DNA from: a virus
Strand: one strand, 5' to 3'
DNA length: 22,657 nucleotides
IMG/VR virus record: IMGVR_UViG_3300024256_000983
How positions within the stretch are numbered: the first letter of the stretch is position 1; each line of letters starts with the position of its first letter. Shown here piece after piece: positions 952-22,291 of the stretch. Both the position numbers and the translations under genes were made by a program. The notes under the pieces are model-generated. The model was not told the origin of the DNA. It saw nothing but the letters and a program-made list of their open reading frames with translations, and did not search any database.

Positions 952-2712
952 ATTTACCAAAATATATTCGTAGAACCATTCAAGGGAAAGGTCCACATTT
1001 GGGACGACAAAGCCGGATATGTTTCAACACAATACAAAAAGTATGCTTATGTTAGAGACAACTATGGAACTTTTGCATCCTTATACGGTGATAAATTAAA
1101 GAAGATATACAGATGGGATAAGACTGCAGAAGGATTATTTGAAAGTGATGTAAATCCTGAAATGCGGACATTAATAGATATGTACGGTCAAAGTGAAGAA
1201 CCATCTACTGGACATAAAATATTCATATTTGACATTGAGTGTGAAGTAACAGAGGGCTTTCCAGACCCAATGATTGGTCCAAATAAAATCACATCTATTG
1301 CAATGTGGGATAACATCAGTAATGTTTATACGTGCTTAGCATTAGACGAACATAAGACACTAGACACAACAGGATTTGGAAAGAATGTCGTAGTTGAGAG
1401 TCACCAAACAGAGTATGAATTATTACAAAGATTTTACCAAAAGTATTTAGAGCTACGACCAACTATTATTACAGGTTGGAACGTAGATGGGTTTGATATT
1501 CCATATTTATACAACAGAACAATTAAAGTTCTCGGTCAAAGTGTTGCTGACAATCTATCACCAATATCAAAGGTGATGTATAGTAAATACACGAAACGAT
1601 ATAAAATAGCAGGTGTAAGTGTATTAGATTACTTACTACTCTATAAGGATTTTACATTTGGGTCAAGACCATCATATAGATTAGATGCCATTGGTCAATT
1701 TGAAGTTGGATCACCAAAAATAAGTTACGATGGAACACTAAACGATTTATTTGAAAACGACTTGAGAAAGTTTGTGGAATATAACATTCATGATGTTAGA
1801 ATAGTAAAACAGTTGGATGATAAATTAGATTTCATTGATATTGCCCGTGGTATTTGTCATATCGGTCATGTTCCATATGAGGACATATATTTCAGTAGTA
1901 GATATTTAGAAGGGGCAATCCTCACTCATTTGAAAAAATTAAACATCGTAGCACCAAACAAACCAGAAAAGGGTGAATATACAGATAATAAGTTCGTAGG
2001 AGCATACGTAAAAAGTCCACAACGTGGTAAACATGACTGGGTTATAGATTTGGATCTGACAAGTATGTACCCAAATTTAATAATGAGTTTGAATATCAGC
2101 CCAGAAACTAAGTTTGGAAGGGTAGTTGGTTGGAATGCTAAAGAATTTATATCAAAGAAAAAAAAGACACATTCTATCATATTAAATGGAAAGAAGAAGG
2201 GCCAACTAACAAATACAGAATTAGAGGACTTTTTTAATGATAATCAAATATCTATTTCAAGTGCTGGTATATTATATAAAACAGACAAAGCAGGTTTAAT
2301 ACCAACTATTTTATCCAAGTGGTTTGATACAAGATCAGAGTTTAGGAAATTAGCTAAGAAATTTGCAGACGACGGAAATGACGAAAAATATGAATACTTT
2401 AACAGACGACAATATATTCAGAAAATTTTACTTAATAGTATGTACGGTGTTCTTGGACTTCAGGGTTGGAGATTTTACGATTTAGAAAATGCAACCTCAG
2501 TTACAACGGCAGGGCAAGAATTAATTAAGTTTACTGCAAAAATAACAAATCATTTTTATAATAGTGAGATTGGTACTCCAGTTGAAGTTGAATTAGAAAA
2601 CGGTGAAGTTAGAAAGTTATATGAAAACAATAGAGTTGATGTAATACGAAATGGTAAAAAAATGGAAATAAAAGTAAAAGATTTACTGGAAACCGATGAT
2701 TTTTTGAGTTAG
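952..2712 (+). CDS. polB: Family B DNA polymerase, N-terminal fragment (3'-5' exonuclease, motifs A and B), probably starting at ATT 952 and ending in a 44-aa intein-like tail
   Basis: ExoI FDIECE, ExoII GWNVDGFDIPY, ExoIII YNIHDV, motif A DLDLTSMYPN, motif B KILLNSMYG. Frame is open 70 codons upstream of ATG 1162 (IYQNIF...HIWDD), with GAGG at 941-944 seven nt before ATT 952. Confidence 0.93.
   Translation: MYQNIFVEPFKGKVHIWDDKAGYVSTQYKKYAYVRDNYGTFASLYGDKLKKIYRWDKTAEGLFESDVNPEMRTLIDMYGQSEEPSTGHKIFIFDIECEVTEGFPDPMIGPNKITSIAMWDNISNVYTCLALDEHKTLDTTGFGKNVVVESHQTEYELLQRFYQKYLELRPTIITGWNVDGFDIPYLYNRTIKVLGQSVADNLSPISKVMYSKYTKRYKIAGVSVLDYLLLYKDFTFGSRPSYRLDAIGQFEVGSPKISYDGTLNDLFENDLRKFVEYNIHDVRIVKQLDDKLDFIDIARGICHIGHVPYEDIYFSSRYLEGAILTHLKKLNIVAPNKPEKGEYTDNKFVGAYVKSPQRGKHDWVIDLDLTSMYPNLIMSLNISPETKFGRVVGWNAKEFISKKKKTHSIILNGKKKGQLTNTELEDFFNDNQISISSAGILYKTDKAGLIPTILSKWFDTRSEFRKLAKKFADDGNDEKYEYFNRRQYIQKILLNSMYGVLGLQGWRFYDLENATSVTTAGQELIKFTAKITNHFYNSEIGTPVEVELENGEVRKLYENNRVDVIRNGKKMEIKVKDLLETDDFLS
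2578..2709 (+). other. Vestigial intein-N-like segment at the end of the PolB N-fragment
   Basis: PVEVELENGEVRKLYENNRVDVIRNGKKMEIKVKDLLETDDFLS* aligns by eye with the end of the RFC IntN in this window (EIELENGEVVVCTEDH...VKTNQL...ILSP*). It lacks Cys1/block A and the TxxH motif. Confidence 0.65.
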
Positions 2713-3173
2713 ATTATACAGATGATAATAGAAGAAAAATTTGGAATTTACTTTATAATACAACTAAAATTGAGTATTGGTTACATAATGGATATACAGA
2801 AATAGAGGCTGAAAGTAAACGTGTTAAATTTAATTCAAAATCAAAATTATCTATTTCTGTAATGAAGGAAATAGAACGTGAACTTAATATTGAGATCCAA
2901 CCAGAAGTTCGAATTGGGTGTTATGTGGCAGATGGTAAATATGAAAATTATATTATAGAATTTTTTGGTGATTATTGGCACATGAATCCGCAGTTATATA
3001 ATGAGACTCATACTATTAGAGGGGGTAAAGTTGCCAATGAAATTTGGGAGTATGATGAAATTAAAATAAATTTTTATGAAGATAATGGATATATCCCAAT
3101 AATAATTTGGGAAAATGATTGGAATTTGAGTAAAGAAACCGTTTTAGAACATATAAGGAAAATTATAATATGA
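2700..3173 (+). CDS. Free-standing putative homing endonuclease (Vsr/DUF559-like PD-(D/E)xK) inside polB; start codon uncertain
   Basis: YVADG...IIEFFGDYWH...IWENDW nuclease motifs. Frame is open from 2700, with YWLHNGYTEIEAE upstream of the tracked ATG 2862. Lies between the polB fragments. Confidence 0.75.
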   Translation, partial: FFELDYTDDNRRKIWNLLYNTTKIEYWLHNGYTEIEAESKRVKFNSKSKLSISVMKEIERELNIEIQPEVRIGCYVADGKYENYIIEFFGDYWHMNPQLYNETHTIRGGKVANEIWEYDEIKINFYEDNGYIPIIIWENDWNLSKETVLEHIRKIII

Positions 3174-3238
3174 AAATAAAACAAATAAGGAGGCAGCCAG
3201 ATCTCGATGTTGATAGAATTATCTACGTCGACACTTGA
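3170..3238 (+). CDS. polB: PolB middle mini-fragment (22 aa, MKIKQIRRQPDLDVDRIIYVDT*): IntC-like start plus first half of motif C
   Basis: ATGA overlap with the endonuclease stop. IIYVDT is the first half of YxDTDS; the rest (TDSIF) continues in another frame from 3235. Confidence 0.7.
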   Translation: MKIKQIRRQPDLDVDRIIYVDT

Positions 3239-4086
3239 CTGATTCTATATTTTTATCAGTTGTAGACCTCATTAACCACCGTTTCAAAGGTCAAAGCCTG
3301 AGTGATGTAATGATGACTCAACGAATAAATGAAATTGCAACTGAAGTTCAAGAATACTTAAATGGTTCATACGACTATTTCGCTAAGAAATTCTGTAACT
3401 TAGACACACACCGATTTGAAATCAAACAGGAAATTATAGCAAAGTCTGGTTTATTCATTACAAAGAAACGATATGGTATGAAACTCATTAGTGATAATGG
3501 AGTTCAAGTAAATAAGACAATGGTAAAGGGATTAGATACTGTACGTAGTAATTTCGCACCGGCATTTAGAAAACTATTAAACGATGTATTAGAGGACATT
3601 TTAGCAAGTGTTCCACGGGATAAGATAGACCATAGAATAACCAGATTTAAGAAGAACATGAGATTAAAAGATTTAGATGATATTTCTTCTCCAACCGGTG
3701 TAAAGGGAATTAAGAAATATATTAAAAAGGACAAAGAAAATACTTCAGTATTTACAGTATTGAAGAACGGTATTCCAGTCCATGTAAGGGCAGCAGTAAG
3801 TTATAATGATTTATTGCGATATTACAAACGAGATAAAAAATATGGATTTATAAGTAATGGGGATAAAATCCGGTGGGTATATTTAAAGAATAACTCATTA
3901 GGATTATCAGTAGTAGCATATAAAGGTTATGAAGATCCACCCGAGATTATGAAATTCATAGAAGATAATATGGATTATGATAAAATCTATGATAGAGCAC
4001 TCACTAAAAAACTCAATCTATTTTATGAATGTTTAGATTGGGGTAAACCAGTAGATGAAGCACAAAGTATAGAAAGATTTTTTTAA
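3235..4086 (+). CDS. polB: Family B DNA polymerase, C-terminal fragment (second half of motif C, palm and thumb)
   Basis: TDSIF, KQEIIAKSGLFITKKRY, KGLDTVRS, PVHVRAA and YWV-type GDKIRWVYLK motifs; ends QSIERFF. TTG 3235 overlaps TGA 3236-3238. Confidence 0.92.
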   Translation: MTDSIFLSVVDLINHRFKGQSLSDVMMTQRINEIATEVQEYLNGSYDYFAKKFCNLDTHRFEIKQEIIAKSGLFITKKRYGMKLISDNGVQVNKTMVKGLDTVRSNFAPAFRKLLNDVLEDILASVPRDKIDHRITRFKKNMRLKDLDDISSPTGVKGIKKYIKKDKENTSVFTVLKNGIPVHVRAAVSYNDLLRYYKRDKKYGFISNGDKIRWVYLKNNSLGLSVVAYKGYEDPPEIMKFIEDNMDYDKIYDRALTKKLNLFYECLDWGKPVDEAQSIERFF

Positions 4087-4928: not shown

Positions 4929-5084
4929 ATGGGAAGAAAGAAATTAAATAGAACGCCCGATGAAATACGAGAACAAAATCGTATTCGTCAAAGGCGTTAC
5001 TATGCTAAACATCGTGAAGAAATAATATCCAAGAAGATGGAGAAATATTATGAAGGTAAAAAAGACACTACAACGAGGGCTTAA
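4929..5084 (+). CDS. Small basic helical protein (51 aa) overlapping the HNH gene; not in the ORF track
   Basis: MGRKKLNRTPDEIREQNRIRQRRYYAKHREEIISKKMEKYYEGKKDTTTRA*, directly after TATTTATA. Confidence 0.65.
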   Translation: MGRKKLNRTPDEIREQNRIRQRRYYAKHREEIISKKMEKYYEGKKDTTTRA

Positions 5085-5670
5085 TCATAGTAGGAGAAAT
5101 GAAAAACCAATTTGGGAACATATTCCGTTAGATGGTTTAGATCCAAGAACCAAAGACTTTACAGGTAAAAGAATTCACCATCTTAAAGTTTTATATTCTA
5201 CGAGAGTAGAAAAATCTCAACGATGGTGGTGGGTTTGTAAATGTGATTGTGGTATGTATGCCTTGAGGCCTAACTGGCAATTAATTGGTAAATATCAATC
5301 TAAAAGTTGTGGCTGTCTAATGGGAAAGTCAATCCCTGAAACAGCTGGAACTGAAAATCATCCACTTTTTGGTGGTCATAGAACTTACACAAGAGAAGGA
5401 TATGTTTTGAAATTTGCACCTGACCATCCTAAATCAAAAGATAGACGAGTCTTGGAGCATCGTTTGGTTATGGAAGCACATATTGGTAGGACTCTCACAT
5501 CCAAGGAAACAGTTCATCATAAAAACGGAATACGAGATGATAATAGAATTGAGAACTTGGAACTTTGGACTGGTTCTCATCCCCACGGCGTAAGAAAAAA
5601 TGACCTAACAGATTGGGCAATAAGTTATTTACAAAAAGAAGGTTACAGGGTGATGAATGATAGACTTTGA
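5050..5670 (+). CDS. HNH homing endonuclease (HNH_3 type) with N-terminal Cys-rich DNA-binding region
   Basis: EHRLVME...VHHKNGIRDDNRIENLELW; N-terminal WVCKCDCG...SCGC. Confidence 0.9.
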   Translation: MKVKKTLQRGLNHSRRNEKPIWEHIPLDGLDPRTKDFTGKRIHHLKVLYSTRVEKSQRWWWVCKCDCGMYALRPNWQLIGKYQSKSCGCLMGKSIPETAGTENHPLFGGHRTYTREGYVLKFAPDHPKSKDRRVLEHRLVMEAHIGRTLTSKETVHHKNGIRDDNRIENLELWTGSHPHGVRKNDLTDWAISYLQKEGYRVMNDRL

Positions 5671-8481: not shown

Positions 8482-9114
8482 ATGTTACAAAACAAACAAA
8501 ATTCTGAACATACTCTTTTTGTTGAGAAATACAGGCCAATATCATTAGACACTTACATAGGAAACGACCACCTAAAGGAAAAGGTAAGGGTTTATTTGGA
8601 AAGTGGAGACATCCCACACTTACTATTATTTGGTCCAGCTGGAACCGGTAAGACAACTCTCGCAAAAATACTCTCAAATAGTATTGAATGTGACTATATT
8701 TACATAAATGCGAGTGATGAAAATAGTGTAGATTCTGTTAGAAATAAAATAAAAGGATTCGTATCAACTATTGGATTTAAAGATTTAAAGGTGGTCGTAC
8801 TTGATGAGTGTTTGGATGAAAATACATTAGTTACTGTATTATCGAATGGGGAACAGATTCAAGTTCCGATAAAAGATGTTGATGAAAACAATGATTTAGT
8901 TAAATCTTGGAATGTTGAAAAAGAAGAATGGCAGTGGAGACCATTCCACTTGTGGGATAAGGGTGAACAAGAGGTGTATGAGATTGAACTTGAAAATGGT
9001 GAAGTAGTTGTTTGCACTGAAGATCATAAATGGTACGTCGAAGATAAAAATGGTAATCCAATTGTAGTTAAAACAAATCAGTTGGATAACTATAATCATA
9101 TTTTATCACCATAG
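8482..9114 (+). CDS. rfcS: Clamp loader (RFC small subunit/gp44-like) N-fragment fused to split intein N-part
   Basis: FVEKYRP, Walker A GPAGTGKT, INASDE, Walker B VVVLDE followed directly by intein block A CLDENT. Confidence 0.93.
   Translation: MLQNKQNSEHTLFVEKYRPISLDTYIGNDHLKEKVRVYLESGDIPHLLLFGPAGTGKTTLAKILSNSIECDYIYINASDENSVDSVRNKIKGFVSTIGFKDLKVVVLDECLDENTLVTVLSNGEQIQVPIKDVDENNDLVKSWNVEKEEWQWRPFHLWDKGEQEVYEIELENGEVVVCTEDHKWYVEDKNGNPIVVKTNQLDNYNHILSP
8809..9111 (+). mobile_element. Split intein N-part (101 aa)
   Basis: Cys1 CLDENTLV at TGT 8809; block B ELENGEVVVCTEDHKW; stop follows. Confidence 0.92.
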
Positions 9115-9149
9115 TTAGATTTTTTTACTCGAAAAACACAAGTTGGTTA

Positions 9150-9157
9150 TATTTATA
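9150..9157 (+). promoter_or_regulatory. TATTTATA motif upstream of the endonuclease inside the fractured clamp loader gene
   Basis: TATATTTATATAT at 9148-9160, then SD GGAG and ATG 9179. Confidence 0.45.
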
Positions 9158-9178
9158 TATGAACAATGGAGATGTTAA

Positions 9179-10072
9179 ATGAGTATAAAAAAATCTACAA
9201 GGCAAAAGTTAAGAGATGCCGCAAATAGAAATGGCCTTGGTGGAGTTCATTATTATGATAAGATTTGTGACAGTTGTGGTAAAGATTATGTAGCTAAAGC
9301 GTCGAATCAATTGTTATGTTATGAATGTAAAAAAATAGGTAGGTTGAAAGAATGTGAACATTGTGATTCTAGATTTCATACAAAAAATAATGGAAAATAT
9401 TGTAATCAGTGTGTCGGTAATAGAGTATGGATGCGAAAACGAGATAATATAAAAATTGCTAAAAAGATACAACATACAAAGAAAAAATGGTTACAATCGG
9501 ATGAAGCTAAACAATTTTATACACAACTTGGAAAACACAATTCTAAAAAGATGAAAGAGTTTAACCAGACTGAAAAGGGTAAGGCTAATATAAAAAGAAA
9601 TGCAAAATTAAACTCAAAGTTGATGAGAGAAAAGATTTCCAATGGTGAATTTACACCACCAATAACAAATACATTTACACATTGGGATGCTATAATAGAA
9701 GTTAATGGTAAAGTTAAAAAGTTTAGGAGTTCGTGGGAAGCTTGTTTTTGGTATAGTAATCAACATTTAGAATATGAAAGTAAGGAATGTAGAACTAAAA
9801 AAACGGATAATGGTAGAGTTTATATGGGTGATTTTTACGATAAAGATACAAAGATATTGTATGAAATAAAACCAAGAAGTTTTTTCTTAAAACAAACAAA
9901 AAAAATAGACAGCTTAATAAAACATTGTGATGTGAGTGGATATAAATTCAAGTGGATAAATGAAAATAATATTATGGATTATATAAATTCAGAAATATTT
10001 ATTGATAATAACAAAATACAATTAAATAAAATGTATGTGGGAATAGGTTATAGTGAACAAGATAAAGATTAA
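9179..10072 (+). CDS. Free-standing putative homing endonuclease: N-terminal zinc fingers plus TnsA/gp4-like PD-(D/E)xK nuclease domain
   Basis: CDSC...CYEC and CEHC...CNQC; FRSSWE...LEYE...YMGDFY...YEIKP. Sits between IntN and IntC. Confidence 0.75.
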   Translation: MSIKKSTRQKLRDAANRNGLGGVHYYDKICDSCGKDYVAKASNQLLCYECKKIGRLKECEHCDSRFHTKNNGKYCNQCVGNRVWMRKRDNIKIAKKIQHTKKKWLQSDEAKQFYTQLGKHNSKKMKEFNQTEKGKANIKRNAKLNSKLMREKISNGEFTPPITNTFTHWDAIIEVNGKVKKFRSSWEACFWYSNQHLEYESKECRTKKTDNGRVYMGDFYDKDTKILYEIKPRSFFLKQTKKIDSLIKHCDVSGYKFKWINENNIMDYINSEIFIDNNKIQLNKMYVGIGYSEQDKD

Positions 10073-10172
10073 ATCTATAAAAAAATTAAAAGACACCCAG
10101 CACGTGTATGACTTGTCAGTTGATGGTAATCATAATTTCGTAATAGGTAAAACAGAAACACTTACACATAAT
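10053..10172 (+). mobile_element. Split intein C-part (40 aa)
   Basis: MNKIKIKSIKK...VYDLSVDGNHNF (block F)...LTHN|C (block G, Cys+1 at 10173). Confidence 0.92.
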
Positions 10173-10781
10173 TGTGATTTCGTCACCCCACAAGGTCAAG
10201 CAGCACTACGAAATCTAATGGAAACGTTCAGTAAACATTCTCGGTTTATTCTAACCTGTAATTATGTAGAACGAATAATTGATCCAATCCAAAGTAGATG
10301 TCAAACATTTCAGATAATTCCACCATCCAAAAAAGAAATTGCAGTACATATAAAGGGTATATTGGATAAGGAAGAAATAGAATACAACGTAGAGGACATA
10401 GTATTGAACGTTAATAGTGGGTATCCAGACATTAGACGAATAATCAATTCAGTCCAACAGCAATCTATAAATGGTAAATTGACTGTTGATAAACGTAGTA
10501 TGGTTGAAAATGATTACAAATTAAAATTATTAGAAATACTAAAGTCACAAGATAAGAAGAGTGCATTTAAGAATATACGACAATTATTAGCAGACACCCA
10601 AGTTACAGAATTTGCTGATATGTTCAGATTACTATTTGATGAACTGGATTCATGGGCGAGTGGTCATGTCGCGGAATGTATATTAGAACTGGCTGAAGGT
10701 CAGTTTAGAGAAAAAAACATCGTGGATAGAGAAATAAATTTTATGGCAACAATGATTAATATATTAAATATAATAAAATAA
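10053..10781 (+). CDS. rfcS: Split intein C-part fused to clamp loader C-fragment (GTG start)
   Basis: 40-aa IntC, then CDFVTPQGQAALRNLMETFS, FILTCNY and the SRC arginine finger. The spliced product would be 311 aa with Walker B restored as DECD. Confidence 0.93.
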   Translation: MNKIKIKSIKKLKDTQHVYDLSVDGNHNFVIGKTETLTHNCDFVTPQGQAALRNLMETFSKHSRFILTCNYVERIIDPIQSRCQTFQIIPPSKKEIAVHIKGILDKEEIEYNVEDIVLNVNSGYPDIRRIINSVQQQSINGKLTVDKRSMVENDYKLKLLEILKSQDKKSAFKNIRQLLADTQVTEFADMFRLLFDELDSWASGHVAECILELAEGQFREKNIVDREINFMATMINILNIIK

Positions 10782-11007: not shown

Positions 11008-11796
11008 ATGAATGTTTTAGTCATTGGAGATAAATGATTAGATGTGTTTATATACGGTGATATACATAGAATAAGTCCAGAGGCCCCAGTTCCAATATTT
11101 GTTCCAACACATGAAACTAAAAATGAAGGAATGTCTAAAAATGTGGTGAATAATGTTGAATCATTAGAAATGACTGTATATTCACTTACAAATGAAACTA
11201 GTATTGTGAAGAAGCGTTACGTGGATAGTCGGTCAAATCAAATGGTATTACGAGTTGATGAACATGATTATTGTGATAGAATAGATAAGAAAATACTAAG
11301 TGGCATAGTAGATAATTCATTTACTCCAATATTTGGACACAAAACCAAGCTTGACGCAATCATTATTTCAGATTACTGTAAGGGATTTTTAGAAGAAGAA
11401 GATATACAATTCATTTGTGAAAATAATAATAATGTATTTGTAGATACAAAGAAAAAACTTGGTAAGTGGATACAGTGTGCAGATTTCATAAAAATAAACG
11501 AGTTAGAATATCAGAAAAATCACGAACTACTATCTGAAGAAGGATTTGATGATAAACTTATAGTTACACTTGGAGGTAATGGATGTAGATATAAAGATAA
11601 AGTATTTTCAGTAGAAGAAGTTCCAGTTAAAGATGTTAGTGGGGCAGGTGATACATTTATAGCTGGACTTGTTAAGGAATATTTAGAAACAAATAACATA
11701 GAAAGTGCAATACAATTTGCACAGAAATGTACAACTCGTGTAGTTCAGAAACACGGAGTTGAAATGGTTACATTAGAGGAGTTACAAAATGGCTAA
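11008..11796 (+). CDS. rfaE: RfaE/HldE domain I-like heptose-7-phosphate kinase (PfkB family) with in-frame TGA at codon 10
   Basis: MNVLVIGDK*LDVFIYG then RISPEAPVP, ISDYCKG, VDTK, KINE and DVSGAGDTF. TGA at 11035-11037; the tracked GTG 11044 start would cut off the N-terminal VIGD strand. Confidence 0.82.
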
Positions 11797-12082
11797 ACGA
11801 AAACCACCACAACAGATTCAACAAAAGGTTGATTTAACAAAGGCAGACACAATAAAATGTGATGATTGTGGAAATTATCTATTTATTACTTCACACATAA
11901 TAAAGAGAATATCTGCAATCCTATCACCCACAGGACAAGAAGCACTTGTACCAGTTCAAGTTTATAGTTGTGGTAATTGTGGTAAAGTTCCAAAGATGTT
12001 TATAGAGGGAGCTGGACTTGGTTTAGAAGAAGTAAATAAACCAAAGAAAGATGCACTTTCACGACCAGATTTGATGGGATAA
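11789..12082 (+). CDS. Zinc-ribbon hypothetical phage protein
   Basis: CDDC...CGNC pairs in 97 aa; overlaps the upstream stop. Confidence 0.7.
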   Translation: MAKRKPPQQIQQKVDLTKADTIKCDDCGNYLFITSHIIKRISAILSPTGQEALVPVQVYSCGNCGKVPKMFIEGAGLGLEEVNKPKKDALSRPDLMG

Positions 12083-12503: not shown

Positions 12504-12932
12504 ATGATTAAATTTAAACCAGATTTAATAAATTATAAAGAAGTTGAAATTATACCAGAAATAAATCAAGTTTTTGACTTAGATGAAGAAAAATTAAAAT
12601 GGGCTATAGATGAATTCGAAGTAGAATTGAATTGGAAAGATATGTGGTCGATGGAAGATGCAAAACAACGATTAAAAGATGGATGGTATTTTAATATTTT
12701 AGAAATAGATAATAAAATTGTGGGATGGGTTTGGTTTAATATATTAGAAAATGAACTTTGTAATTTATATGTGCATAAAGATTATAGAAATACGGGATAT
12801 GGAGGGCAATTAATATATTCAATTACAAATTTGGTAAATAAAGAGAGAATTGATATTTATAGTAAGATAGATGTGTGGAATATAAAAAGCATAAATGTAT
12901 TTAAAAAATGTAATTGGGAGGAAAGTAAATGA
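12504..12932 (+). CDS. GNAT-family acetyltransferase
   Basis: IVGW...NLYVHKDYRNTGYGG (motif A)...NIKSINVF. Confidence 0.85.
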   Translation: MIKFKPDLINYKEVEIIPEINQVFDLDEEKLKWAIDEFEVELNWKDMWSMEDAKQRLKDGWYFNILEIDNKIVGWVWFNILENELCNLYVHKDYRNTGYGGQLIYSITNLVNKERIDIYSKIDVWNIKSINVFKKCNWEESK

Positions 12933-14539
12933 AATTAAATTATTTTAATTTTAATAATTATAGTAGTTCTATTGCAACTCAGTCTTTGCAAGCTGCTGCC
13001 CCCTTTTTGACAGGAAGTAATCCTGAATATTGGACAGGAAAGGGTAATAATCATGGAGTAATTGCCGGATATGATTGGGTCCCTTCAAGTGGATCATTAA
13101 AGTTATTAGAACTTAACACGAATATTCAAACTCCACCTGAAACTAATTTTTTAGATAGTGCAGTTACTTGGTGGAAAGCAAATAATTATGACACTATAGT
13201 TTTGGTTACACGAAATGAAGAAGGAACTGTTATGCCACCTTTGGAGCTGGTAGGTGATATAACAGCCAGTTTGGACATAGATGGGTTTACATCAAGTATT
13301 TATGTTCAGCCCTCCTATCCTACTCCGGTACCAGATTTTGATGTTCCTAATACTACTTTTGTGTTACGATTTGGATTTGATTCTGCAAGTCCTATTGATT
13401 ATTTAGCATCGGATAAAAGAGAATTTAGGAATTTCGCATCTTCATCTGGAATTGAATCTTTGATGCCAAGAAAAATGGCAGATTTACCTGATGGATTTTC
13501 TAATGGTGTTGGTGTTCCAGATGTACTTATTAAAGACCCCACAGTAGATTATCAAACTTTACTTATGAATTCTTTTCAGTTTTATGATATAACGGATGAT
13601 AATAAAAATTATTTACTTTCTCAATCTTATTGTGAGGAGTTTATCCTACCCGATTTGAATTATAATGGGGCTTATTATTCTGAGGTGAGGGGTATTATGA
13701 TGTTGACTCCACAAGAAAATATTTTTTTACAACCACGGAATCCAATTACAGCGGATGTGAATGTTTTTCAAACTCATTTACCTCATTATATTTTATCAGG
13801 TGATTCGGGTTCTTATACGACAACTACTATTACACGAAAGGGTGCCATATCGGGAAGTCAGGTATTGATGTCAGATAACAGTTATACAAATATAGAAAAT
13901 GTAGTTACGGGGTCGTTCTTAAAAATTCGTAATATTAGTGGGTTACCCGATGAATCGGATGGGTACGCTAACAAGTGTGGTCATTATTTCTGGAAACTTT
14001 GGGAAACTTCAAGTTTATCAATACCATCCCAATCAAATGTTGAGGTTATTGATGTATGGCCCGATTTATTCACAGATTCATATACCGTAATAAATGGTGA
14101 TAAGAAATTTGGTACATTTACAAATCTTTTTACAAGTGGAAGCGAAAATACTTGGAAATTTAAACCAACAATAGAATTATCTATTGGAGATTATTTGGCA
14201 GACGAAGATGGTCAAGAATTAGAAATAACAAGTATTTCGGTTGTTTCATCTTCAACACAGTTGTTTCCTATTAGTGAAATTAATGTTGAACCCCAGGATT
14301 ATTATTATGCGAATGGAGTGATACTACATAATGCGGCGTGTAACGGTAGCCTCTGGTCCACCATGGTAAGTTATCCCACTTATGCTGAAGTCTCATATCC
14401 CAATACAAGTCCGCGCTGTGATTATTATTCACTTCACGGCGGGAATGGGGGCCATACGCCGACATATACCACCTCTAAGGGGACAGTAAACGGGTGCACC
14501 AGCACTTCATGGTGGCAAGCAAAGGGTTTATGTGGGTAA
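12929..14539 (+). CDS. Circularly permuted ATP-grasp-like domain + Hint (BIL-like) domain + 68-aa Cys/Ser/Thr-rich C-terminal peptide
   Basis: GYD...LLELNTN near the N-terminus, then VLIKD, CEEFI and SEVR. Hint from GAISGSQVLMSD (13841) to YYANGVILHN (14332), followed by AACNG...GLCG. Confidence 0.7.
   Translation: MKLNYFNFNNYSSSIATQSLQAAAPFLTGSNPEYWTGKGNNHGVIAGYDWVPSSGSLKLLELNTNIQTPPETNFLDSAVTWWKANNYDTIVLVTRNEEGTVMPPLELVGDITASLDIDGFTSSIYVQPSYPTPVPDFDVPNTTFVLRFGFDSASPIDYLASDKREFRNFASSSGIESLMPRKMADLPDGFSNGVGVPDVLIKDPTVDYQTLLMNSFQFYDITDDNKNYLLSQSYCEEFILPDLNYNGAYYSEVRGIMMLTPQENIFLQPRNPITADVNVFQTHLPHYILSGDSGSYTTTTITRKGAISGSQVLMSDNSYTNIENVVTGSFLKIRNISGLPDESDGYANKCGHYFWKLWETSSLSIPSQSNVEVIDVWPDLFTDSYTVINGDKKFGTFTNLFTSGSENTWKFKPTIELSIGDYLADEDGQELEITSISVVSSSTQLFPISEINVEPQDYYYANGVILHNAACNGSLWSTMVSYPTYAEVSYPNTSPRCDYYSLHGGNGGHTPTYTTSKGTVNGCTSTSWWQAKGLCG
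13841..14332 (+). other. Hint domain with Gly at position 1 and intact terminal His-Asn (+1 = Ala)
   Basis: Block A-like GAISGSQVLMSDNSYTNIENV; IELSIGDYLAD; blocks F/G EINVEPQDYYYANGVILHN. Confidence 0.75.
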
Positions 14540-18921: not shown

Positions 18922-19539
18922 ATGAATACTAATTTACATTTACAAACTATAAAATCGATACCAGTTCCAATGTATGCACCTTGTATTTTTGAAGGAGCAT
19001 TTGGGGATGTAGAGTTGAGAAGATTAAGAAAACAAGTAGAAACTTTCCCCGAAGAAGAAGCGTTAACACACGGAGATAGTATGTTTGGCTCATCAGACGA
19101 ATATTCTGAAAGAATTGCCAAACAAAGAGCTATACCACAAATAGAAGATTTTGCATGGTTATATTCTAAATTTGAATCTTTATGTATGCAAGCAAATTTT
19201 AATTTTAATTGGAATTTTGAAATGACAGGTATGTTTGAGCCAGCAATATATCTTACCTATGATGGTAAAGTAAAAGGTAAATATGACTCTCATATGGATG
19301 TTGGTGGTGATGGACCTATGTCATATAGAAAAATCTCAGGAGTATTACTTGTTAATGATGGTTATGAAGGTGGAGAATTGGTTTTCCAGGGACAACCTGG
19401 ACCAGATAAAGATACACCTAAATTAAAGGCCGGTACAATAATATTTTTTCCATCTTTTATGATGCATAGTGTAGAACCTGTTACAAAGGGAATTCGAAAT
19501 TCTGTTGTATTGTGGTTACACGGAAAACCATACAAATAA
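18922..19539 (+). CDS. 2OG-Fe(II) oxygenase (PKHD/prolyl-4-hydroxylase-like)
   Basis: YDSHMD (HxD), RKIS, YEGGEL, FFPSFMMHSVEPVTKGIR (distal His and 2OG-binding Arg). Confidence 0.92.
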   Translation: MNTNLHLQTIKSIPVPMYAPCIFEGAFGDVELRRLRKQVETFPEEEALTHGDSMFGSSDEYSERIAKQRAIPQIEDFAWLYSKFESLCMQANFNFNWNFEMTGMFEPAIYLTYDGKVKGKYDSHMDVGGDGPMSYRKISGVLLVNDGYEGGELVFQGQPGPDKDTPKLKAGTIIFFPSFMMHSVEPVTKGIRNSVVLWLHGKPYK

Positions 19540-19556
19540 TAATAAATAACCTATTT

Positions 19557-19632
19557 ATAGATATGGAAAATACAAAGTTATTGTTGTACAGTAATTCGGA
19601 TATGGAGATAAAATAGATATGGAAAATACAAA
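19557..19632 (+). repeat. 20-bp direct repeat duplicating a gene start and creating a 17-aa uORF (19563-19616)
   Basis: ATAGATATGGAAAATACAAA at 19557-19576 and 19613-19632. First copy reads MENTKLLLYSNSDMEIK*; second starts the 890-aa gene (MENTNL...). Confidence 0.85.
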
Positions 19633-22291
19633 TTTATTTGATAAGTTAAGCTATAAAATGATGTTGGGTTCGAGTGCCAATGCTTTAGGTAATTACTTTG
19701 CCAATGAAGTTAGAGGTTTGAAGAAAAATGAAGCAGTATTATATACAGTTGATTTATTACCAAAAGATTATGTTGGTTACGTAACAGAAATTAATACAAA
19801 TACAGCATTAGATGAAGATTTGATTGAATGGTTTGATTTTGGTGCACTTGTAAATTTATGTTCTCATTGGAAGTACAAAACTCTTGTTCTTTTATGTGAA
19901 TCTAAATGGAAGTCAATTACTCCTTCACATCCGTTTCGTGATAAATTAAGTAAAGAATTAAGTAAAAAAGACATTAAATTTGATATACATTATAGTTCTA
20001 ACCAAGATGATATTTGGGATGGGTTTGAGTATAATAGTCAAGAAGATTTCATATTAAGAGTGGGTTGGAATAGAGAATGTGAAATAGATCGAATTGCGGA
20101 GAATAAATTAAAAACTAAAAAATTAATTCAACATTTAAATGTTTATCCGACTCCAGAATATCAGACTATTGAAAATAACGATGGTTTCGAAAAAAATAAA
20201 TGGTATGTTTTTAAGAAAAGTAATGTTGATAGAAAGCAAGGTGTTGAGATTCGTAAATTTAAAACTAAAAAAGCTTTTATTACTCATTTAAAAGATTTTG
20301 ATTATTGTGAAGATTTCATAGATGCTGGTATAGATGTAGATACAGGATTAAAGACAGAAGTAAAATCCTATGGAATAATATTTAAAAAACAATTTTATGA
20401 TTTAACACCCAACTTATATTGTAAGTATTGGGAACATGAAGATAAGGGTGATGAAAAGTTATTTTATAAAATTGATCCTACAAACTGTATGCTTACAGAT
20501 GAAGTAGAATTGGCAGATGGTTCTACAAAACAATCATTTTTATTAGAAAGAAGGGATAATTTAAAATTAGGTGGTAAAATAACTAAAATAGATGAATTCG
20601 ATTCCTACATCAATAAAAATTATGTTTTAATAAACAATGAATATAAATTTACATATTCTACCAATGTTGTAAAGGCAGGCCACCTTTCTCAATATACTCC
20701 TGTAAGGTTTTTGGAAGTTGGTGATAAAATTCTTCGTGATAATATGGAAGAACTTGAAATTAAACAAATTGAATTTGTTAAAGGTGTTGTTAAAGGAAAA
20801 ATGATTAGAACTGCAGAAAATGTTATGAGTATTAATGGATTTTTTGTAAAGGCACAATCAAGTAACAATATTTCAGGATTGGATGATTTGATTTTTTCAC
20901 CAAAAATTGGTCAAGAAGCTATGAGTTGGAGTGATGAAGAACAAAAAATTGTAGCCGGTGTGATGAATAAAGTTGAAGATGAAAAAATGCCAAGTAGAGT
21001 TGTTGAGATTACTTTTAATACAGGTGGACATATTTGGACAGCAGAGTTTTTATTTGAAAAACCACTTAAAGTTATATATGCAGCATCACGTGAAGGAATG
21101 AAAGTAAGGGCACCAAAAGAGAAATTTTTCGGTTGGGCCTCATATAGACCCGATTTGACTATGGAAATTAAACATCAGGAAGCCATGCAATTGATGCCTG
21201 GTATGCAGTGTATTACACCCAAAAGACCTGATATGAAAGTAGTTGAATCACTTTATGGTGATATGGTAGCATCAGTAGTTGTGAGTATGAGAGAAGTAGC
21301 GGGTAAGAGATCACATTGGGATATTTATGAAATGAAACCAATGGATACTCCTAACCCGAATTACTTTATGAATAGATTGCACGTTCATAATGGTCCATCT
21401 AATTGGCCAATCCCACCATCATTTGGTAGTGAATTAGATATATATGGGCATTGGGATGTATCACATCCTGCGAGTTTTCCAAGCCCTTCTAATACTATTT
21501 ATGATTTAACTTCTCGTGGGGATATAGATGCATTAGTCCAACCTGGATCAACTGCCATGACTTCCGGCACTCTCATTTCCGCCCCTGCCCGCACAAATAC
21601 CATGAAAGCCATCACAATGCCTGGCACAAAAGGTTTTGTTATTACAAAACAACCCACTAATCCATATCATACTGGTGCTTATGGATTTTTTGGTCCAAGT
21701 TCATTTACTACTATAATGACATGGTCCTATACGGCTCGGACTCCACCTAACTACGGCCGTTTGTGGAGTGTGAGGCCTGGAAGTGATTTTGATATTGCAG
21801 TGAGAGATTACCCATCCGAAACGACCAAGGGGAAAATGTATTATTTTAAACCACCTTGGACTTCTGTTACACCGCCACAAGTTGATTTTTCACCATCACC
21901 AACCTATATAGAATCGACTGATCCCAAAGGCCTTTCAACTGCAGTTCCCGCTTTTATTATTACACAGGCTAGATATAATGCTCCATCTACCCCGGGACGA
22001 TGGTATTTCAGGAATTTTGCAAATCCAGGAGGCACTGGGTTTGGCCAGAGTCAAACTGAGCCCTCACCATCAACCCAACCAAGAGCAGGTAGTAATTATT
22101 GGAGTGTTTTTGGTAAAGCTCCCAGTGCCACCGCAACGGCAAACAATATCCAGGGCCACTTTTCAGAAGCTATATTTTTAGGTAAAGCACAACCCAGTTC
22201 AAATACGGCTGAATTGGCAGAAGGTATTTTACAGTATTATAACATAACACCTCCTGGAGCCCAACACCCCAGTTTCTTCTGGCAAATTTAA
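19619..22291 (+). CDS. Circularly permuted ATP-grasp-like domain + two tandem Hint domains + Pro-rich LamG/concanavalin-like C-terminal domain
   Basis: TVD...TEINTN, FILRVGW, YVFKK, CEDFI and TEVK parallel the 12929 protein. Hint 1 ~20483-20854 (ELADGSTK...INGFFVKA); Hint 2 ends YFMNRLHVHN (21391). Tail has WDVSHPASFPSPSNTIYDLT and IQGHFSEAIF. Confidence 0.68.
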   Translation: MENTNLFDKLSYKMMLGSSANALGNYFANEVRGLKKNEAVLYTVDLLPKDYVGYVTEINTNTALDEDLIEWFDFGALVNLCSHWKYKTLVLLCESKWKSITPSHPFRDKLSKELSKKDIKFDIHYSSNQDDIWDGFEYNSQEDFILRVGWNRECEIDRIAENKLKTKKLIQHLNVYPTPEYQTIENNDGFEKNKWYVFKKSNVDRKQGVEIRKFKTKKAFITHLKDFDYCEDFIDAGIDVDTGLKTEVKSYGIIFKKQFYDLTPNLYCKYWEHEDKGDEKLFYKIDPTNCMLTDEVELADGSTKQSFLLERRDNLKLGGKITKIDEFDSYINKNYVLINNEYKFTYSTNVVKAGHLSQYTPVRFLEVGDKILRDNMEELEIKQIEFVKGVVKGKMIRTAENVMSINGFFVKAQSSNNISGLDDLIFSPKIGQEAMSWSDEEQKIVAGVMNKVEDEKMPSRVVEITFNTGGHIWTAEFLFEKPLKVIYAASREGMKVRAPKEKFFGWASYRPDLTMEIKHQEAMQLMPGMQCITPKRPDMKVVESLYGDMVASVVVSMREVAGKRSHWDIYEMKPMDTPNPNYFMNRLHVHNGPSNWPIPPSFGSELDIYGHWDVSHPASFPSPSNTIYDLTSRGDIDALVQPGSTAMTSGTLISAPARTNTMKAITMPGTKGFVITKQPTNPYHTGAYGFFGPSSFTTIMTWSYTARTPPNYGRLWSVRPGSDFDIAVRDYPSETTKGKMYYFKPPWTSVTPPQVDFSPSPTYIESTDPKGLSTAVPAFIITQARYNAPSTPGRWYFRNFANPGGTGFGQSQTEPSPSTQPRAGSNYWSVFGKAPSATATANNIQGHFSEAIFLGKAQPSSNTAELAEGILQYYNITPPGAQHPSFFWQI

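Follow-up and report, generated by a model that had tools for sequence, protein, structure and literature searches.

A Hint domain between a predicted permuted ATP-grasp ligase and a hypervariable, lectin-like tail in a protein of an uncultured marine T4-like phage

Introduction

Type A bacterial intein-like (BIL) domains end in a His-Asn pair, have no nucleophile at the +1 position which follows and yield mainly cleavage products (PMC4031507). Cyclisation of the terminal Asn is catalysed by the intein and needs its active site, although the block F His (F:13) is dispensable in some inteins (PMC4031507). Here we describe a gene at positions 12929-14539 of IMG/VR record IMGVR_UViG_3300024256_000983, a stretch of 22,657 nt (hereafter the window, meaning the whole of the DNA that was analyzed) which was judged from its gene content to derive from an uncultured marine T4-like phage. 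The encoded protein carries a BIL-like Hint domain between an N-terminal domain with the fold of circularly permuted ATP-grasp ligases and a small C-terminal tail which is hypervariable among related phages.

The Hint domain resembles type A BILs of known structure (2lwy, 6tmm) in fold, in the terminal His-Asn, in the lack of a +1 nucleophile and in being followed by a variable module, but it has no Cys1 (G305), no block-B His (N399) and no block-F His (D457). Type A BILs use an N-terminal thioester, whereas the phage Hint could at most cleave at its C-terminal end. Hint domains of the PT-HINT family (PF07591) of polymorphic toxins also stand directly before a highly variable, exchangeable C-terminal module; in the phage protein, however, this cargo looks like a binding module and not a toxin, and the part upstream is a predicted enzyme and not a secretion or filament domain.

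The N-terminal domain has the same fold and the same permuted topology as a set of amide ligases (3kaj, 1m0t, the GspS synthetase domain 2io7, the YgiC/YjfC peptide-spermidine ligases 7uka/7uk6 and the fungal Cp1B, 9cjn), and as in these enzymes the Lys, Glu and Arg motifs come after an acidic/Asn motif. It is, however, only 7-14% identical to them, is much smaller (~300 aa compared with 370-600 aa) and is fused to a Hint, which none of the named ligases is. The tail is like carbohydrate-binding modules of families 5 and 12 (CBM5/12; ChiB, ChiC 2d49) and phage receptor-binding tips (Pam1 7eea, Pa193 9b45) in being a small beta domain (43-51 aligned residues, root mean square deviation (rmsd) 1.3-2.4 Å, 14-28% identity, Z 5.2-6.4) with invariant aromatic residues (W476, Y482, Y499, Y500, W529). 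It differs from CBM5/12 in having no sequence-model match, four invariant Cys and an insertion, and it is attached to a Hint where the CBM5/12 modules and the receptor-binding tips are attached to a glycosidase or a fibre shaft. No paper was found which describes a fusion of a ligase, a Hint and a lectin-type tail, and the architecture is new, built from known kinds of domain.

Domain organization of the ligase-Hint protein

The gene is an open reading frame (ORF) of 536 aa plus stop on the + strand, and the positions given for it in an earlier, sequence-only reading of this DNA were confirmed. The protein is composed of three modules, ligase, Hint and tail, and the positions of these and of the residues considered below are as follows.

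12929..14539, + strand: whole gene; its 33 homologues, all of them marine metagenomic, are 62-99% identical
12929..13840, + strand: circularly permuted ATP-grasp ligase domain, aa 1-304, from an AlphaFold2 (AF2) model and fold searches
13073..13117, + strand: putative Mg/ATP-phosphate motif D49...E61-x-N63-T64, kept in 32-33 of 35 diverse relatives
13532-13534, + strand: putative nucleotide-binding Lys, K202, conserved in 28 of 32
13634-13639, + strand: putative hinge Glu, E236-E237, with E236 conserved in 23 of 28
13688-13690, + strand: putative Arg motif residue, R254, Arg or Lys in 24 of 28
13841..14332, + strand: BIL-like Hint, aa 305-468, from structural searches (VIA and Foldseek), profile search and alignment of block B
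14327..14332, + strand: codons of H467-N468, the predicted C-terminal cleavage site, invariant and forming the 5' boundary of the hypervariable cassette
14333..14536, + strand: tail, aa 469-536, a hypervariable CBM5/12-like beta domain with four Cys, from the predicted fold, VIA and alignment of homologues

The Hint domain and its C-terminal junction

Hint and tail were modeled together (aa 296-536) from 43 sequences with a pLDDT of 84.9, and the model was compared to known structures with Foldseek and with VIA, an all-against-representatives structural search which is independent of Foldseek. The Hint matched BIL2 of Tetrahymena BUBL (6tmm) with a VIA Z of 18.2 and an rmsd of 1.7 Å over 139 aa, and the Clostridium thermocellum BIL (2lwy) with a Z of 17.8. 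There were 29 chains at a Z of at least 8, and all of those listed were inteins or BIL, Hedgehog or Vint domains. Foldseek returned a best E of 1.3e-8, and a profile of the Hint family run against PDB sequences found BIL2 by sequence alone (E 1.4e-11), all of which places the domain in the Hint superfamily. PF07591 did not match the Hint of the 536-aa protein, while the downstream Hints of three relatives (P0036, P0164 and P0071) did match this family. In PHROGs the sole match was weak, a family labeled "virion structural protein" aligning with the Hint part.

Structural alignment set G305 as residue 1 of the Hint and N468 (codon 14330-14332) as its last residue, followed by A469, in agreement with the sequence-only reading, which had recognized a Hint with Gly1 and a His-Asn|Ala junction at 14327-14335. 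Position 1, canonically Cys, Ser or Thr, was G, V or T in close homologues, and no nucleophile was conserved at this position among 23 representatives of the ligase-Hint family. In block B, T396-F-T-N399 aligned to T-V-N-H of BIL2 with the His position occupied by N or Y in homologues. At +1, A, V, T or I was usual, with P in a single aligned homologue, and the first Cys was found at +3. The position-1 nucleophile and block-B T-x-x-H of a type A BIL or class 1 intein are therefore missing, as is the +1 nucleophile of splicing, while the C-terminal His-Asn is present. As the domain has neither a nucleophile at position 1 nor the block-B His, formation of an N-terminal thioester and splicing are ruled out, and because this N-terminal junction is dead the Hint stays attached to the ligase.

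H467-N468 was invariant in 30 of 30 close homologues while the +1 and +2 residues varied. We also compared the presence of His-Asn with that of a downstream module in the 23 representatives. In the 11 which have at least 60 residues directly after the Hint, His-Asn was present apart from two poorly aligned sequences, and another exception was the first Hint of a distant paralogue encoded further downstream in the window. Where no module follows the Hint (2-13 residues remaining), His-Asn was lost in six of nine. The groups of representatives are not phylogenetically independent, so this association is suggestive only. The earlier claim that the Hint cannot splice thus stands, in that both N-terminal and +1 nucleophiles are missing, while the second part of that claim, release of the tail by cleavage after N468, is plausible from these comparisons, the presence of His-Asn following that of the downstream module.

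The tail as a predicted folded domain

The sequence-only reading had described the last 68 residues as a tail with four Cys, and alignment of homologues showed this tail to be conserved as such, with C471, C497, C523 and C535 all invariant. These Cys belong to an invariant scaffold which comprises C471, W476, Y482, P491, C497, Y499, Y500, P511, Y513, K517-G518, C523, W529, K532-G533 and C535. In the model the tail had a pLDDT of 86-93 and five strands. With the Hint matches set aside, nearly all of the remaining structural matches covered model residues 174-241 and were to CBM5/12 modules or to phage spike or fibre proteins, with ~20 independent matches over residues 178-240. The CBM5/12 matches, to modules which bind chitin or cellulose, included ChiB (8yug, Z 6.4, rmsd 1.8 Å over 46 aa, 24% identity), 5zl9 (Z 6.3), the chitin-binding domain (ChBD) of ChiC (2d49, Z 5.6, 28% identity), 4hmc (Z 5.4), 4tx8 (Z 5.3) and 4ny2 (Z 5.2), with 1ed7, 1aiw and 8gul at lower scores (Z 3.8-4.0). 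Matches in phage receptor-binding domains were to the cyanophage Pam1 tailspike (7eea, Z 6.2) and to proteins of Pa193, 7-7-1, phiAB6, APK16 and Carin-1. The predicted fold agrees with that of CBM5/12, but the Z values are middling for so small a domain, and on this model we consider it probable that the tail is a CBM5/12-like folded domain.

Sequence searches with the tail were negative. Six tail sequences matched no Pfam family up to an E of 10, PF02839 included, a tail profile had no match to PDB sequences, a feature search of the ESM Atlas gave no usable match, and a word-index search for other proteins which carry the tail returned just two near-identical members of the ligase-Hint family. 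In two homologues (P0030 and P0032) a LamG lectin domain of ~150 aa (PF13385, E 1.5e-13) follows the last tail Cys. One candidate for a stand-alone tail (P0055) was rejected as it was a fragment which starts at base 1 of its contig.

A hypervariable cassette bounded by the Hint junction

Comparison among three related phage contigs in 60-nt bins gave nucleotide identities of 85-100% up to position 14320, ~50% from 14321 to 14534 and 93-97% directly after the stop codon, the drop falling in the bin which starts at 14321. The variable cassette is bounded by the His-Asn codons and the stop codon. Synonymous divergence (dS) in the tail was saturated (1.4 or undefined) compared with 0.09-0.37 for the rest of the gene. 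In six alleles the GC content of the tail was 45-52% vs 34-35% for the rest of the gene, and at third codon positions (GC3) 41-50% vs 20-23%; for the allele of the window itself these values were 52% vs 34% and 50% vs 20%, respectively. The base composition of the tail is near-uniform (~25% each) and its flanks are AT-rich.

Among 30 full-length homologues the mean pairwise identity was 48% for the tail, 82% for the ligase and 81% for the Hint. Identities of body and tail were weakly correlated (Spearman 0.33), and pairs with 94-97% identical bodies carried tails which were 40-49% identical. This diversity is most simply read as old alleles having been exchanged at the Hint joint.

The ligase domain

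The N-terminal domain was modeled with AF2 on aa 1-305 using an alignment of 35 diverse relatives (pLDDT 84.8, pTM 0.84). When this model was searched against the PDB with Foldseek, eukaryotic glutathione and homoglutathione synthetases ranked first (probability 1.00, E 4e-6), followed by glutathionylspermidine and trypanothione synthetases, YjfC and YgiC. The ten best VIA matches (3kaj, 2wyo, 1m0t, 5oeu, 2io7, 5oet, 7uka, 3n6x, 9cjn and 2vpm) were all permuted ATP-grasp ligases, with Z from 11.1 to 8.6 over 219-250 aligned residues which span model residues ~5-286. Classical ATP-grasp proteins (RimK, LysX/ArgX, Ddl, PurK, TTL, AMdnB) reached a VIA Z of at most 4.7 with alignments which start only at about residue 86, and a gap in scores separates them from the permuted ligases. 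The N-terminal 85 residues, which carry D49...E61-x-N63, were matched by permuted enzymes only, as is expected from a circular permutation. The match thus covers the whole domain with permuted connectivity, and the proposal made from sequence, an ATP-grasp-like domain of the permuted class in which D49...E61-L-N63 comes before K202 (VLIKD), E236-E237 (EEFI) and R254 (EVR), is upheld both by the predicted structure and by the order of the motifs.

The relatives used in the residue alignment are 18-35% identical to the 536-aa protein. Within the putative Mg/ATP-phosphate motif, D49 and E61 were each kept in 32 of the 35 and N63 in 33, and over the whole set of putative Mg/ATP residues (D49, E61, N63, K202, E236 and R254) conservation was 82-94%. 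T64, R147 and K163 were also kept in most of the 35. The stretch from D49 to N63 gave a weak profile match to the motif region of biotin-carboxylase-type ATP-grasps (E 2.5). That ligase-type residues are kept at such low overall identity argues for an active enzyme, and from sequence and model together the domain is probably an active carboxylate-amine ligase of the glutathione-synthetase/GspS/YgiC fold class.

The domain scored below the gathering score of PF03738 (GSP_synth), CP_ATPgrasp_1, CP_ATPgrasp_2 and GSH_synth_ATP; Pfam gave nothing up to an E of 1, and none of the NCBIfam ligase families matched. Since no curated hidden Markov model (HMM) recognizes it, we file it as a separate family within the fold class and not as a member of GSP_synth or CP_ATPgrasp. 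A fold search of the Atlas returned GSP_synth and GshA clusters together with several viral clusters carrying PT-HINT, and showed that the family is viral (Uroviricota) with both stand-alone (a 303-aa cluster) and Hint-fused forms.

Possible processing and function

The explanation which we prefer, and in which our confidence is evenly divided, is that of a three-module protein with a one-sided Hint and an exchangeable binding tail. The Hint would cut once after N468 by Asn cyclisation, a step which we regard in itself as an even call, and a lectin-like ~7-kDa module, starting with Ala as its free N-terminus, would thereby come away from the body of ligase and Hint. The released tail would bind a sugar or a surface and would probably be braced by two disulfides, for which C471-C535 and C497-C523 are the presumed pairs. 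The Hint junction would serve as the joint at which binding modules are exchanged between phage lineages, these being the Cys domain, the Cys domain with LamG, or further Hints and repeats.

Several observations weigh against this explanation. At the canonical His of F:13 the family has an invariant Asp, D457 (read by eye from the printed sequence), and intein position F:4 is not conserved, so efficient Asn cyclisation is not assured. Three relatives without cargo keep His-Asn with just 4-5 residues after it, and the pair may therefore serve another purpose. The CBM assignment is drawn from structure and not from sequence, at a Z of ~6 over ~50 aligned residues, and none of the three parts of the protein reaches threshold in Pfam or NCBIfam. 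The 536-aa protein also has no signal peptide, so for disulfides to form and a sugar to be bound it would have to be set free by lysis or built into the virion.

A serious rival, although one that we consider rather unlikely, is that no cleavage takes place and that a variable domain for sugar binding targets or anchors the intact ligase, with the Hint as a decayed rigid spacer and recombination joint. The loss of Cys1 and of the block-B and block-F His would fit such decay, several relatives keep the Hint despite a fully degenerate C-terminus, and CBM modules are normally tethered to the enzymes which they target. However, His-Asn is invariant right beside highly variable +1 and +2 residues and its presence tracks that of a downstream module, and a lectin braced by disulfides would act outside the cell, where an enzyme that depends on ATP is unlikely to work. 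We see less of a case for protein tagging, in which the fused ligase would couple the released module, via the amine at its new N-terminus, to a carboxylate of a virion protein or host protein, or would activate the Asn carboxylate at the end of the Hint body; in both forms the module would become covalently attached. In at least five viral clusters the ligase invariably precedes the Hint to which it is fused, and its residues of catalytic type are conserved. GspS, YgiC and glutathione synthetase are all enzymes which join a peptide carboxylate to an amine by an amide bond, K517 and K532 are invariant in the tail, and a phage would gain little from a free 7-kDa lectin which is not attached to anything. 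Many family members, however, are without cargo or have a degenerate Hint end, which implies that the ligase has a job not needing a released module; stand-alone clusters of the N-terminal domain exist, and the known relatives of the ligase act on small peptides and polyamines and not on proteins. Tagging is thus unlikely in our estimation, and its specific form, in which a hypervariable lectin module is ligated after the Hint cut by the fused permuted ATP-grasp to a carboxylate of a virion or host-surface protein, is slightly less likely again.

Beside protein tagging, the sequence-only reading had offered a unit like that of a ribosomally synthesized and post-translationally modified peptide (RiPP); in the graspetide form of this third possibility, the tail would be a Ser/Thr-rich core peptide macrocyclised after release by the fused ATP-grasp via side-chain ester or amide bonds. 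Ser, Thr and Tyr are indeed frequent in the tail, which shares a chain with an ATP-grasp, but the prediction for it is a folded beta domain that matches CBM5/12, the LamG domain extends it in two homologues, and cargo of the carbohydrate-binding type is out of keeping with a graspetide core. There are few acidic residues which could act as acyl donors, E487 being the sole conserved one, and the graspetide macrocyclase AMdnB (7m4s) matched the ligase domain at a VIA Z of only 3.7 (residues 85-284) compared with ~10-11 for glutathione synthetase and GspS. Neither the core-peptide reading of the tail nor the graspetide-type reading of the ligase was borne out, and we consider this alternative highly improbable. 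We give equally little credence to the tail as the variable region of a diversity-generating retroelement (DGR) or another targeted hypermutation system. A hypervariable block with sharp bounds, placed 3'-terminally in its gene, with saturated synonymous sites and near-uniform base composition between AT-rich flanks, would be in keeping with one, but substitutions between close alleles were of all types, with many G/C transversions and third-position changes, and were not adenine-specific. No template-like repeat of the tail was found in the 22.7-kb window, tblastn found no second tail copy in the window or related loci, and there was no reverse transcriptase among the window ORFs. The type of substitution together with the lack of a repeat, a second copy or a reverse transcriptase in the DNA searched makes a classical DGR unlikely.

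Should cleavage by the Hint be confined to its C-terminal end, as in the three-module explanation with a one-sided Hint, the domain would be a natural device for release by a single cut, set between an enzyme and a binding module that can be exchanged, and would be of interest to intein engineers. The cassette boundary on the His-Asn codons provides a clean case of module swapping at a Hint joint outside the polymorphic toxins. A hypervariable, lectin-like domain points to a function in recognition of a host or particle under diversifying pressure, and if tagging were true a phage could re-equip a fixed scaffold with exchangeable binding tips while its structural genes stayed unchanged. At least for this subfamily, the predicted folded binding domain would correct the RiPP interpretation of the tail.

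Distribution of the ligase-Hint family

In addition to the close homologues, an exhaustive HMMER search identified 171 further, more distant cluster representatives, and ligase-Hint proteins are common in marine and lake viral metagenomes. No match in cultured phages was obtained by tblastn of the whole protein and of the N-terminal domain against 50,697 phage records. The layouts of the relatives include ligase-Hint alone, ligase-Hint ending in His-Asn with a stub of 4-5 residues, the last of them Lys or Glu, ligase-Hint with a further one to four bona fide, Cys1-bearing Hints downstream (matching PT-HINT, AXH and Intein_splicing), and tandem Hints followed by Gly-rich repeat regions. The constant unit of the family is the ligase with an N-terminally inactive Hint, and the part downstream varies.

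The same Hint subtype was found at the C-terminus of hundreds of other, mostly viral, proteins with FN3, PASTA or collagen-like parts. Among a set of metagenomic, largely viral proteins (P0049-P0182), many end in a bona fide Hint with Cys1, often after a Gly run. These Hints finish with T-H-N and 1-10 further residues, very often a single Lys, and the N-terminal parts of the proteins are mutually unrelated; their relatives in BFVD carry FN3, PASTA or collagen-like domains. The layout is Hedgehog-like in having a C-terminal Hint, yet His-Asn is kept with almost nothing to release.

Gene neighborhood and other features of the window

All genes of the window lie on the + strand, and its GC content is ~28-41%. 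The ligase-Hint gene sits in a run of auxiliary-type genes, two of which have the following positions.

12504..12932, + strand: upstream GNAT acetyltransferase gene, the stop codon of which overlaps the ATG of the 12929-14539 ORF
19619..22291, + strand: distant paralogue of 890 aa which shares the N-terminal domain and Hint region and has a longer C-terminal cargo

In order, the run comprises a PfkB-type kinase, a zinc-ribbon ORF, a SET-domain protein, the GNAT acetyltransferase, the ligase-Hint gene, a glutaredoxin-sulfotransferase, an unannotated ORF of 283 aa, an EamA transporter, an LplA-like protein, an unannotated ORF of 165 aa, a 2-oxoglutarate (2OG)-Fe(II) oxygenase and the distant paralogue. 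The GNAT gene was also found upstream of the ligase-Hint gene in contigs L002, L007, L008 and L009, and the order GNAT, ligase-Hint gene, glutaredoxin-sulfotransferase was syntenic in related contigs. The zinc-ribbon ORF, three genes upstream of the ligase-Hint gene, encodes 97 aa (11789-12082) with two Cys pairs and weak Pfam matches to zinc ribbons. No microprotein gene directly adjoins the ligase-Hint gene.

The paralogue was 19% identical to the 536-aa protein over 411 aa (BLASTP E 4e-6) and was included in a family alignment. It had no Pfam match, and its cargo had no significant similarity to the LamG of P0030. The cargo region (21001-22000) was also GC-richer (~41% vs 28-31%). Genes for 2OG-Fe(II) oxygenases (PF13640) adjoined ligase-Hint genes in two unrelated contexts, at 18922-19539 of the window, before the paralogue, and at 2702-3879 of contig L006, after P0164.

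The family B DNA polymerase of the window was 46.6% identical to its counterpart in Microcystis phage Mel-JY01, and further T4-like genes were a ribonucleotide reductase (RNR) fragment, a gp44-type clamp loader interrupted by intein pieces and an HNH endonuclease. The polymerase (1162-4086) is split over two ORFs (1162-2712 and 3235-4086) with an ORF of 103 aa between them, and the HNH endonuclease gene is nearby (5050-5670). The clamp-loader gene (8482-10781) is spread over three ORFs, the first with the N-terminal part of the AAA domain and the beginning of an intein splicing domain, the second of 297 aa with weak zinc-ribbon matches, and the third with an intein C-terminal block at its start followed by the gp44 lid, a layout which looks like a split or fractured intein arrangement.

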